Shown here one piece after another: positions 61,922-64,000 of a stretch of DNA of 64,000 nucleotides; the first letter of the stretch is position 1, and each line of letters starts with the position of its first letter. The position numbers were made by a program, and so were the translations under genes. The notes below the pieces were generated by a model. It ran no database searches and was not told the origin of the DNA. It saw only the letters and a program-made list of their open reading frames with translations. This stretch comes from a virus (lineage: Duplodnaviria; Heunggongvirae; Uroviricota; Caudoviricetes): the IMG/VR virus record IMGVR_UViG_2541047857_000014, one strand, 5' to 3'.

Positions 61922-63054
61922 CAATCAGGAAACACCACCAGGGAGAAACGATCAATATAACTTTCACCTACAAAGGAGTTAGATGTCGTGAGCCGCTTTC
62001 CAATCTGGAAGTAACACCAAAGAACATTAAATACGCCGAGCGTACACTCGGCGAAATCCATAATAAGATCGAAAGGGGAACATTCATTTATGCAGAATAT
62101 TTTCCCCGTTCTGCTCGTTTGAAAATTTTTGGTAATGCTGCTGCAAGCAAAACGGTAAAGATGTACCTGGACGAATATCTTGAAATCTGCGAAACAAGAA
62201 AACTTTCACCCTCTACGATTGGTGGCTATAAAAAATGCCGTAGTGCGTTAGCCTCACTTCACATTTGCCCTGCAAGTGAATTAACACCAGCAACCCTGAA
62301 AGCGTGGATTCAAAGCCAGAAAACAACCTTAAAAACCATTCGCAACCAGTTATCTTTCCTACGGTCAGCACTTGATGAAGCCGTGACCGATGGGGTACTT
62401 CAAATTAACCCCGTATCGTTAGTAACAGCTTCGCGCTACCAAAGTGATAAGTCAGAAGCAGAAAGCAGCTATGTGGTTGATCCGCTATCACCAGCAGAAG
62501 TTGATGCATTACTAGCAGCAGCCGGAAACAAACAATGGGAAAATCTGTTCCGGTTCGCCATACATACAGGCCTGCGTAGTTCTGAATTATGTGCCCTACG
62601 ATGGCATGATATCGACTTTGTTGGAAAAACAGCCCATGTTCAGAGCGCAAGTGTTGTCGGAGTTATCAAAGGAACAAAGACAAAAGCCGGTACCCGTAAA
62701 GTTGAACTGACTGAAGAAGCAATGTTGGCGTTGATAAACCAGAAGCCATTTACATTCATGAAGGATGCTACTGTCTTTGAAGATCCAAAGACCAATAAAC
62801 CCTGGGCAAGTGCTGATGCAATTAGGAAAAAAGCATGGGTGCCAACATTGCGAAAAGCAGGTATTCGTTACAGAAACCCATATCAAACCAGGCATACATT
62901 CGCCACCAGCCATATCAGCCGGGGAGCAAACCTGTTTTGGCTTGCGGCTCAAATGGGCCATAAAGGGCCTGAAATGTTATTCAGGCACTATGGACAATAC
63001 TTGAAAGAGTATGATGGGAGGGCAAGTATCAAGGATAAAAAGGCTTTATTTTAA
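61882..63054 (+). CDS. int: tyrosine integrase (lambda-type with N-terminal arm-binding domain)
   Basis: 390-aa ORF with C-terminal RHTFATSHISRGANLFWLAAQMGH...LFRHYGQY catalytic region. Confidence 0.85.
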   Translation: MGQTKLLKLPRGVTIRKHHQGETINITFTYKGVRCREPLSNLEVTPKNIKYAERTLGEIHNKIERGTFIYAEYFPRSARLKIFGNAAASKTVKMYLDEYLEICETRKLSPSTIGGYKKCRSALASLHICPASELTPATLKAWIQSQKTTLKTIRNQLSFLRSALDEAVTDGVLQINPVSLVTASRYQSDKSEAESSYVVDPLSPAEVDALLAAAGNKQWENLFRFAIHTGLRSSELCALRWHDIDFVGKTAHVQSASVVGVIKGTKTKAGTRKVELTEEAMLALINQKPFTFMKDATVFEDPKTNKPWASADAIRKKAWVPTLRKAGIRYRNPYQTRHTFATSHISRGANLFWLAAQMGHKGPEMLFRHYGQYLKEYDGRASIKDKKALF

Positions 63055-63663
63055 GTCATTATGCCAATCGTCTACTGTTTGAAACCAAATTTTTAACCTT
63101 TGCATAAAGGTACGATCCTTTTTGGGAGGGTGGTACCTTTGAAAAGAAGTATGTAACGCTTCGATAACTCCCATACAAGCATCAATTACTTCTTGTGCTT
63201 TAACCGGGCGATCGGCATCTGAAAGCTTGTGAGCGACCTCACAATCCAGAGTTGCTTTCTCTAGTACAGATGAGAACACCTCGTCAGGTATATACAGTCC
63301 TCTGCTTTCCAAAATGCAAATCAGTTTGGAAACTTGTTGAGCTTTAGCCAAGATAGTTAACAAGTATGAAACAGAAGCCTTTGTTCTATCCTTTTGCAAC
63401 CTTAACAATCGATGCTTTGATGCTCTAATTTTAGGTTGAGTTGTCTGACTGAGCCAATAGTTAGAAGAAATATCAGAAATTTCAATAACTAACTTTGAAA
63501 TAGCATCAATAATTGATTTCGATTCAGAACGTGTCGCCAGTTTTACAGAATTATTGTACGCAACTCGCCATCCAATGAAAACTAAGCAGACGCTAACTAC
63601 TGTGATACACCACGAATACTGTCCTATTTGTGCTACTAATGACATTGGTTCCGTACTGATCAA
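63046..63663 (-). CDS. hypothetical protein with N-terminal transmembrane segment
   Basis: 205-aa ORF, AT-rich, convergent with int and overlapping its stop. Confidence 0.45.
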   Translation of the reverse strand: MISTEPMSLVAQIGQYSWCITVVSVCLVFIGWRVAYNNSVKLATRSESKSIIDAISKLVIEISDISSNYWLSQTTQPKIRASKHRLLRLQKDRTKASVSYLLTILAKAQQVSKLICILESRGLYIPDEVFSSVLEKATLDCEVAHKLSDADRPVKAQEVIDACMGVIEALHTSFQRYHPPKKDRTFMQRLKIWFQTVDDWHNDLK

Positions 63664-63673
63664 CTATCGCCTC

Positions 63674-64000
63674 TTATACTCTTTCTGGTTGTGCTAAATC
63701 AATAAATTTATCAATCTGTTCTTTGTAGAACGGAACATCACTTTTTATAATCAAACGTGCTTTAACGTTGGCTTTAGGTATCCCTTCCTTACGGATGAGA
63801 CCTCCAAACGCCTCTTCTAAGAAAGAGGAACCAACACCCAGTGCTATACCGCGAAAATCAACCACAATCTCCTGTTCAGTACCCTTCAGCGCAGGCACCA
63901 AAAACTCTCTACGAAATCTTTCCGCACTGTGTGGGCTATCCGTTGTGTAACGTCCGAAAGGTGTTCTGGAGAACTCCTTCGCTATGACGATATTTCTCAT
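63674..64000 (-). CDS. small protein, possibly STAS-like DUF4325
   Basis: 108-aa ORF whose ATG sits exactly at the window end; N-terminus MRNIVIAKEFSRTPFGRYTTDSP resembles DUF4325 openings as I recall them. Confidence 0.35.
   Translation of the reverse strand: MRNIVIAKEFSRTPFGRYTTDSPHSAERFRREFLVPALKGTEQEIVVDFRGIALGVGSSFLEEAFGGLIRKEGIPKANVKARLIIKSDVPFYKEQIDKFIDLAQPERV

Follow-up and report, generated by a model that had tools for sequence, protein, structure and literature searches.

What is encoded beyond the second integrase of a prophage-bearing stretch of DNA, do these genes belong to the prophage, and what might they do together? These questions were addressed for the right-hand end of IMG/VR virus record IMGVR_UViG_2541047857_000014 (Caudoviricetes), of which 64,000 nucleotides (nt) were analyzed, hereafter the window. 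The initial annotation, made from the sequence alone, described a two-gene cassette downstream of the integrase gene (int): an open reading frame (ORF) of 108 amino acids (aa) whose start coincides with the window edge, and a 205-aa ORF. Both genes are real and lie where they were placed, but the cassette is not a pair, as a third gene encoding a 303-aa predicted kinase lies 4 nt past the window end. The 108-aa and 205-aa genes form the last two members of a cargo operon of three translationally coupled genes, A-B-C (Table 1). The initial interpretation is thus partly supported, being right on position while missing the defining kinase gene. With a STAS and GHKL kinase as its first gene, the unknown pair becomes a module of kinase, phospho-switch and third protein related to the VapKSC system.

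Window positions 61600-64000 are 100% identical to Escherichia coli UTI89, S88, IHE3034, APEC O1, and other B2 strains, and the annotation and ORF list of the UTI89 locus (L001) were used beyond base 64000; A-B-C are UTI89_RS14695-RS14685 there. The stop of gene A and the start of gene B are separated by 4 nt, and the stop of gene B and the start of gene C by 10 nt. The Shine-Dalgarno sequence of gene B (AGGAG) is located within the end of gene A, while that of gene C (AAGAGG, 6 nt 5' of the TTG) lies within the end of gene B. RefSeq places the start of gene C at an ATG six codons downstream of the TTG, giving a protein of 199 aa. As initially described, the pair is convergent with int, and the 3' ends of gene C and int share 9 nt. 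A promoter and terminator scan gave no signal above shuffled expectation, the sole clear terminator being the ssrA terminator inside the right attachment site (attR). Homologues of the 108-aa and 205-aa ORFs form 151 and 29 clusters at 90% identity, respectively, and the gene order is conserved across phyla, indicating that both are genes rather than chance ORFs.

In order to estimate how constant the trio is, the B motif was scanned against 185,579 species-representative GTDB genomes (one genome per species), of which 590 matched, and 80 loci were fetched. In this co-occurrence analysis, of the kind suggested by the initial annotation, the gene A family was found directly upstream of B in 77/80 loci and the gene C family directly downstream in 64/80 with a first hidden Markov model (HMM) and in 78-79/80 with a broader HMM. 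The B-motif loci were distributed across Gamma-, Beta-, and Alphaproteobacteria, Verrucomicrobiota, Nitrospirota, Actinomycetota, Planctomycetota, Bacteroidota, and Saccharimonadales. In Salmonella, Photobacterium, and Rheinheimera, genes for relatives of A with 42-52% identity all precede a DUF4325 gene and a C-like gene, in that order, and stops and starts overlap. More distant DUF4325 relatives with the identical three-gene set were present in Acinetobacter baumannii, a Rhodospirillaceae integrative element, and a Methylococcaceae genome. Furthermore, relatives of B are encoded by 216 IMG/VR viral contigs. Among the IMG/VR loci, 62/63 had A upstream and 67/80 had C downstream, B lay at most 1 kb from the contig end in 20/80 (7.1 expected), and a related, convergent integrase lay within 2 kb of B in 20/80. 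The cassette was found in 129/5426 complete E. coli genomes; every copy was on the chromosome, with identity of at least 99%, and practically all copies were complete. With the cassette as query, blastn against GenBank phage records returned no match.

The pair had been placed between int and an attachment (att) site outside the window, and extension past base 64000 recovered that site along with gene A. Approximately 150 nt past gene A, GGACTCGGGTTCAACTCCCGCCAGCC corresponds to the ssrA 3' end in slightly damaged form, a 5-nt deletion having removed the TCCAC of the CCA end; the partner copy lies within the window, at the left end of the second prophage. The direct repeat is approximately 185 bp long with approximately 93% identity, unusually long and inclusive of the whole ssrA terminator, and the left copy gave an exact 18-mer match (0 expected by chance). 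The sites were located as ssrA 3' fragments by eye and by pattern search. Rfam gave a partial tmRNA match at 21905-21975 (E=1.6e-11), and ARAGORN detected neither a tRNA nor a tmRNA in the window and L001. Delimited by the two repeat copies, the second prophage extends from approximately 21976 in the window to window-equivalent position ~65070. An empty smpB-ssrA-glaH site was identified in some E. coli strains, VTB97074v for example, which together with the att direct repeats establishes the cassette as inserted DNA between int and attR. The cassette has a G+C content of 36-47%, versus approximately 56% for the flanking host genes. It lies within DNA bounded by att repeats, is missing from the empty site, and varies between related prophages. 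A reading of the pair as host chromosomal genes, the outcome that would have undone the initial annotation had a DUF4325 match also been lacking, was rejected because an empty site exists and the cassette is distributed over 129/5426 genomes, and the DUF4325 match proved to be above threshold.

Protein A is a predicted cytoplasmic serine kinase, in which a STAS domain right at the N-terminus is followed by a GHKL domain of the SpoIIAB/RsbW type, with no helix-turn-helix (HTH) domain. The AlphaFold2 model, with 41 homologues as input, had a predicted local distance difference test score (pLDDT) of 87 and a predicted template modelling score of 0.88, and its fold similarity to SpoIIAB/RsbW kinases is strong despite sub-threshold HMM scores (NCBIfam RsbW, E=0.12). 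Motifs of the Bergerat fold were invariant or nearly so among 105 sequences, namely the N-box (E155/N159/H163), G1 (D201-x-G-x-G), G2 (R242-G-x-G245), and G292-T293, so that ATP binding and catalytic activity are to be expected of protein A. A further segment, G-K/x-R-W-W-Q, is invariant in the same family and has no counterpart in the VapK kinase. Longer A homologues of 369-371 aa were observed in A. baumannii (L014 3842-4957) and in the Rhodospirillaceae element (L017 3905-5014); these carry an extra Lys/Arg-rich N-terminal extension of approximately 50 residues that the enterobacterial 303-aa form does not have, a possible nucleic-acid-binding or coiled-coil segment.

Protein B matches Pfam PF14213 (DUF4325) over residues 25-87 with E=6.2e-14 and 51.9 bits (cut-off 23), bearing out the resemblance to STAS-like DUF4325 proteins noted initially. 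The domain is stand-alone, with no DNA-binding domain, and PF14213 is carried by all 120 listed B homologues, bar a few truncated fragments. Across 39 diverse homologues the stretch G-S-S-F-L-E-E-A-F-G-G-L-x-R is essentially invariant, and the position of Ser58, the predicted phospho-acceptor, is S or T in 39/39. In the GTDB set (81 sequences) this position is S in 77, T in 1, P in 2, and A in 1; since the GTDB loci were picked with the pattern SFLEE[AT]FGG, conservation of the motif is by construction there, with Ser58 outside the pattern. PDB searches with single sequences of proteins A and B gave no meaningful match. Searched as a family profile, protein B matched the VapS antitoxin best (PDB 9Z7O chain A, E=0.072), in register. 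The HMMER alignment set VapS chain residue S66 opposite B S58; S66 corresponds to native VapS S48 on the assumption of an 18-residue tag on the 134-residue chain (134 vs 116 aa). The aligned VapS fragment itself scores on Pfam DUF4325 (E=3e-14), placing VapS and protein B in one Pfam family. Protein B is thus a putative VapS-like phospho-switch or antitoxin. A search of PHROGs with proteins A, B, and C yielded families of unknown function only, among them the 441-aa profile phrog_5816 with DUF4325 at its C-terminus. An apparent A-B fusion (P0084) was rejected, as it lies on a contig of 1.3 kb and results from frameshifted read-through.

Protein C is the third member of the operon and its single N-terminal TM helix is as initially described. 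The strongest 19-residue hydrophobic stretch comprises residues 17-35 (Kyte-Doolittle 1.81), with the TM segment at approximately 17-36. No Lys or Arg flanks this stretch on its N-terminal side and three follow it, suggesting an N-out/C-in topology with the bulk of the protein predicted to be cytoplasmic. In the structural model (pLDDT 81) the TM helix runs into a long cytoplasmic helix that is packed in a helical bundle. Profile searches gave protein C no family: Pfam, PADLOC, and NCBIfam supplied no name, and a PIN domain was not found. A HMMER scan of 1.84 billion representatives recovered 153 relatives, every one small and stand-alone, with no informative domain fusion among them. Neither sequence nor specific fold similarity was found between protein C and the small TM effectors of abortive-infection systems. 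Median identity to the E. coli proteins was 20% for A, 46% for B, and 15.5% for C, making B the slowest and C the fastest evolving; in a same-contig comparison of one locus, A was 83% and C 48% identical. The invariant TRSESK of enterobacterial C was considered as a second phospho-site and dropped, only R45 being kept in distant members. In a single case, E. coli FDAARGOS_1303, an IS3-family element (L102 2135-3363) sits between B and C, directly upstream of C, presumably uncoupling C from the operon.

The closest characterized relative of the cassette is VapKSC, a three-gene toxin-antitoxin (TA) and anti-phage operon (Chambers, Rani, Min, Villa, Corbett, EMBO J 2026; PMC13373217; PDB 9Z7O). 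In that system VapK is a STAS and GHKL kinase, VapS a STAS antitoxin of approximately 116 aa with a phospho-serine, and VapC a PIN toxin; the VapS S48E substitution abolishes binding and neutralisation of VapC, and the operon confers approximately 100-fold protection against phage Bas42 (PMC13373217). The cassette likewise has three tightly linked genes on one strand, with the kinase gene first, the gene for the small STAS protein second, and that for the third protein last. Its kinase combines STAS and GHKL domains without an HTH and retains intact ATP-binding motifs, and its middle protein is a DUF4325 protein of approximately 110 aa in which helix 2 opens with a conserved Ser/Thr and a short C-terminal helix follows. 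Mobile elements or the vicinity of defence genes are frequent locations for both systems. The differences begin with the third gene, which encodes a helical-bundle protein with one TM helix and not a PIN/VapC RNase. Furthermore, the two kinases are only remote homologues: hhalign of the protein A profile against VapK, taken from the AlphaFold file of PMC13373217, gave E=4.8e-5, a probability of 68%, and 20% identity, over the GHKL domain only. Within DUF4325, protein B and VapS fall into separate subfamilies, and the Phe with which VapK senses single-stranded DNA (ssDNA) is not conserved in the protein A family. Because its third protein is not a PIN protein, the cassette looks like an undescribed membrane-effector sibling of VapKSC and not a VapKSC member. 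The loci of the VapKSC study were chosen by the presence of vapC, and the word "transmembrane" is absent from it (PMC13373217); coupling of PIN.4 VapC genes with DUF4325 genes is already on record. In the literature searched, the three RefSeq accessions were not mentioned and the function of DUF4325 was not discussed beyond PMC13373217.

The VapKSC study also describes CapK-CapS, which controls the transcription of immune operons and in which CapK is an ssDNA-activated HTH-STAS-GHKL kinase and CapS a repressor composed of STAS and winged HTH (wHTH) domains (PMC13373217). The cassette shares with it a GHKL kinase with an internal STAS domain and a STAS substrate with a conserved serine, while proteins A and B lack both the N-terminal HTH of CapK and the C-terminal wHTH of CapS. 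CapS is a DNA-binding repressor upstream of a separate immune operon, whereas B is followed only by gene C and then by int on the other strand. With respect to the anti-sigma partner-switching modules SpoIIAB-SpoIIAA and RsbW-RsbV (PDB 1L0O, 1TID, 6M36, 8IH8), the cassette differs in that the kinase has its own N-terminal STAS domain and falls under the HATPase_c_2 threshold, no sigma factor lies in or near the operon, and the third partner is a membrane protein.

Small TM effectors are known from abortive-infection systems, such as the TM effectors of CBASS and Pycsar and RexB, and offer a functional analogy only. As in those systems, a small membrane protein is the sole possible output of a sensor-plus-switch module on mobile DNA. 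In the cassette, control would be exerted by a phospho-switch antitoxin and not by a nucleotide second messenger.

On balance, we lean towards the cassette being a phospho-switch TA or abortive-infection module in which kinase A acts on Ser58 of B and, through B, on a membrane effector, C. In a resting lysogen, B would be bound to the cytoplasmic domain of C and C would be inert. A stress or infection signal would activate kinase A, which would phosphorylate B on Ser58, where helix 2 of its STAS domain begins; phospho-B would release C, and C would then damage or depolarise the inner membrane. The outcome would be growth arrest or abortive infection that protects the lysogen population, and the module could also serve as an addiction module for the prophage. 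The data show the genes present, their architecture and folds, the intact kinase motifs, the conserved Ser, strict conservation of the trio, its location on mobile or prophage DNA, and the variable, defence-type slot. The steps that we infer are phosphorylation of B by A, binding of B to C, toxicity of C, what sets off the kinase, and the effect against phages. That C is the output follows by elimination, since it is the only candidate in a self-contained three-gene unit. If this reading is true, the kinase and STAS phospho-switch of CapKS and VapKSC would be a general modular controller that fits very different effectors, with a membrane protein in place of an RNase and a new family of small membrane effectors. 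The trio is common, and it occurs in prophages of the heavily studied extraintestinal pathogenic (ExPEC) and avian pathogenic (APEC) E. coli strains UTI89, S88, IHE3034, APEC O1, and NU14, making genetic tests immediately feasible.

Several observations weigh against a phospho-switched membrane effector. The PF13581 (HATPase_c_2) score of protein A, 22.9 bits, is under the Pfam gathering threshold of 27.4, its homology to VapK is remote, and the sequence similarity of B to VapS is marginal. The aromatic residue needed for ssDNA activation (VapK Phe54, CapK Trp68; PMC13373217) aligns with a variable position, A F48, which in an alignment-based count of the 105 sequences is F in 17, R in 16, Y in 14, E in 12, K in 10, and N in 6; the kinase trigger may therefore differ from that of VapK and CapK. 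Proteins A, B, and C had no PADLOC 2.0 (2023) match at E<=0.1-1, and NCBIfam gave no useful match for any of the three. The immediate neighbours of the trio in diverse genomes are heterogeneous, with integrases (7/144 flanking ORFs), type I restriction-modification, and MADS modestly enriched, a pattern that fits a small mobile module and is not strong defence-island evidence. Lastly, the function of the cassette is read here from sequence and models, by analogy with VapKSC.

A more ambitious version, possible but doubtful as a whole, is that the A-B-C trio constitutes a distinct, widespread family of phosphorylation-gated membrane-effector immune or TA systems, in which B restrains a new class of single-pass, helical-bundle membrane toxin and the kinase senses a signal other than ssDNA. 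The last element is suggested by the lack of conservation of the ssDNA-contacting aromatic, whereas the G-K/x-R-W-W-Q segment is invariant and unique to this kinase family.

Less probable still, and in our view unlikely, is a membrane-tethered partner-switching pathway in which C is not a toxin and acts as an anchor or as a sensor of envelope or phage-entry perturbation, with A and B relaying the signal through phosphorylation of B to a target encoded elsewhere, for instance a host or prophage regulator. The VapKSC-like architecture and the position at the very edge of mobile elements would also suit a pure addiction (TA) module that stabilises the prophage or island without a role in phage defence, a reading not exclusive with the favoured one and consistent with the modest association of known defence genes among immediate neighbours; we consider it quite improbable, given that VapKSC itself protects against phage, that both the cargo slot and the opposite prophage end hold bona fide defence genes, and that a kinase input suggests a signal-dependent response over simple post-segregational decay. 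Most doubtful is a superinfection-exclusion (Sie) moron, in which C would, as other Sie membrane proteins of prophages do, block incoming phage DNA at the inner membrane and A and B would tune its activity or stability, as might be expected of prophage int-att cargo on the strand opposite int encoding a small, single-pass inner-membrane protein that evolves fastest of the three, when many loci lie outside prophages (Photobacterium, Rheinheimera, A. baumannii), a constitutive Sie protein would need no strictly co-conserved ATP-dependent kinase and phospho-acceptor, and the closest characterized relative acts as a toxin-antitoxin.

The phospho-switched effector that we favour would occupy a slot whose content is exchanged among related prophages, consistent with the int-distal cargo position proposed initially. 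The integrase of the second prophage is present in 412 genomes, and similar integrases (megablast, mostly 95-99% DNA identity) adjoin different cargo in other E. coli. The int-attR slot of E. coli 042 (L011 6226-8938) and LZYWN_4 contains an ABC-type ATPase of 577 aa, with matches to PADLOC models of the PtuA/GajA/AriA type, and a Dam-like methyltransferase matching PADLOC PD-Lambda-5_B (E=6e-124); another integrase-domain gene was observed beyond these two genes. In GN4741 the slot holds an unrelated 265-aa protein. A diverged allele of the cassette itself (L002 6001-9068) neighbours an integrase that is 98% identical, while its A, B, and C proteins are only 52, 69, and 41% identical, respectively. 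Divergence from the window starts with the final ~6 codons of the integrase, in the region of overlap between gene C and int. The nearly identical integrase beside a strongly diverged allele points to exchange of cargo at the int end, and suggests replacement of cassette alleles by recombination at the int 3' end. One integrase accompanied by two alleles 41-69% identical, or by unrelated defence cargo, provides a natural comparison for the exchange of int-att immune cargo.

Table 1. Coordinates of the A-B-C cassette, the attachment sites, and other features. Positions are those of the window; window-equivalent positions lie past base 64000 and were taken from the UTI89 locus (L001).
Feature	Position	Strand	Remarks
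Gene A, 303-aa STAS and GHKL kinase	window-equivalent 64005-64916, past window end (L001 14406-15317)	minus	UTI89 WP_000154254
Gene B, 108-aa ORF	63674-64000	minus	RefSeq WP_001244589; ATG at 63998-64000, the final three bases of the window
Codon for Ser58 of protein B	63827-63829	minus	predicted phospho-acceptor; aligns with VapS Ser48
Gene C, 205-aa ORF	63046-63663	minus	TTG start; predicted single-pass inner-membrane protein, putative effector/toxin
int, tyrosine integrase of second prophage	61882-63054	plus	Pfam Arm-DNA-bind_2 7.5e-24, Phage_integrase 2.3e-16
attR, right repeat copy	window-equivalent ~65069-65249 (L001 15470-15650)		ssrA-derived; ~1.07 kb past window end
Left att repeat copy	21944-22128	plus	ssrA 3' end GGACGCGGGTTCAACTCCCGCCAGCTCCACCA and ssrA terminator
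Small ORF overlapping int start	61676-61921	plus	RefSeq 68 aa, WP_001331174; possible excisionase-type protein
296-aa multi-pass membrane protein	60783-61673	plus	between yfdR and int region; G+C 29-32%
DpnII/MboI-like restriction endonuclease-domain protein	22555-23343	plus	attL-proximal end of second prophage
PD-T4-3 GIY-YIG protein	23935-24741	minus	PADLOC E=9e-137
GmrSD type IV restriction enzyme	25700-27649	plus	PADLOC mREase_IV E=0
407-aa ORF	20591-21814	plus	no Pfam or PADLOC match

Elsewhere in the window, a small defence island (22555-27649) was observed at the attL-proximal end of the cassette's own prophage, comprising the DpnII/MboI-like, PD-T4-3, and GmrSD genes. The small ORF that overlaps the start of int adjoins int in all sister prophages examined; it has no Pfam match, and one RefSeq record (H68) labels the feature under the match "excisionase". 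The 296-aa membrane protein next to it has no Pfam match and resembles weakly (E=1.4e-5) the PADLOC model for Csx27, a TM accessory of type VI-B CRISPR, and the same position in sister prophages is occupied by yfdS and another small gene. Finally, the 407-aa ORF is flanked on one side by the first prophage's P2-type integrase (19567-20586) and on the other by the ssrA fragment at 21944. This location is the equivalent int-att cargo slot of the first element, which is P2-like (gpA, Dam methylase, CII-like, CI).

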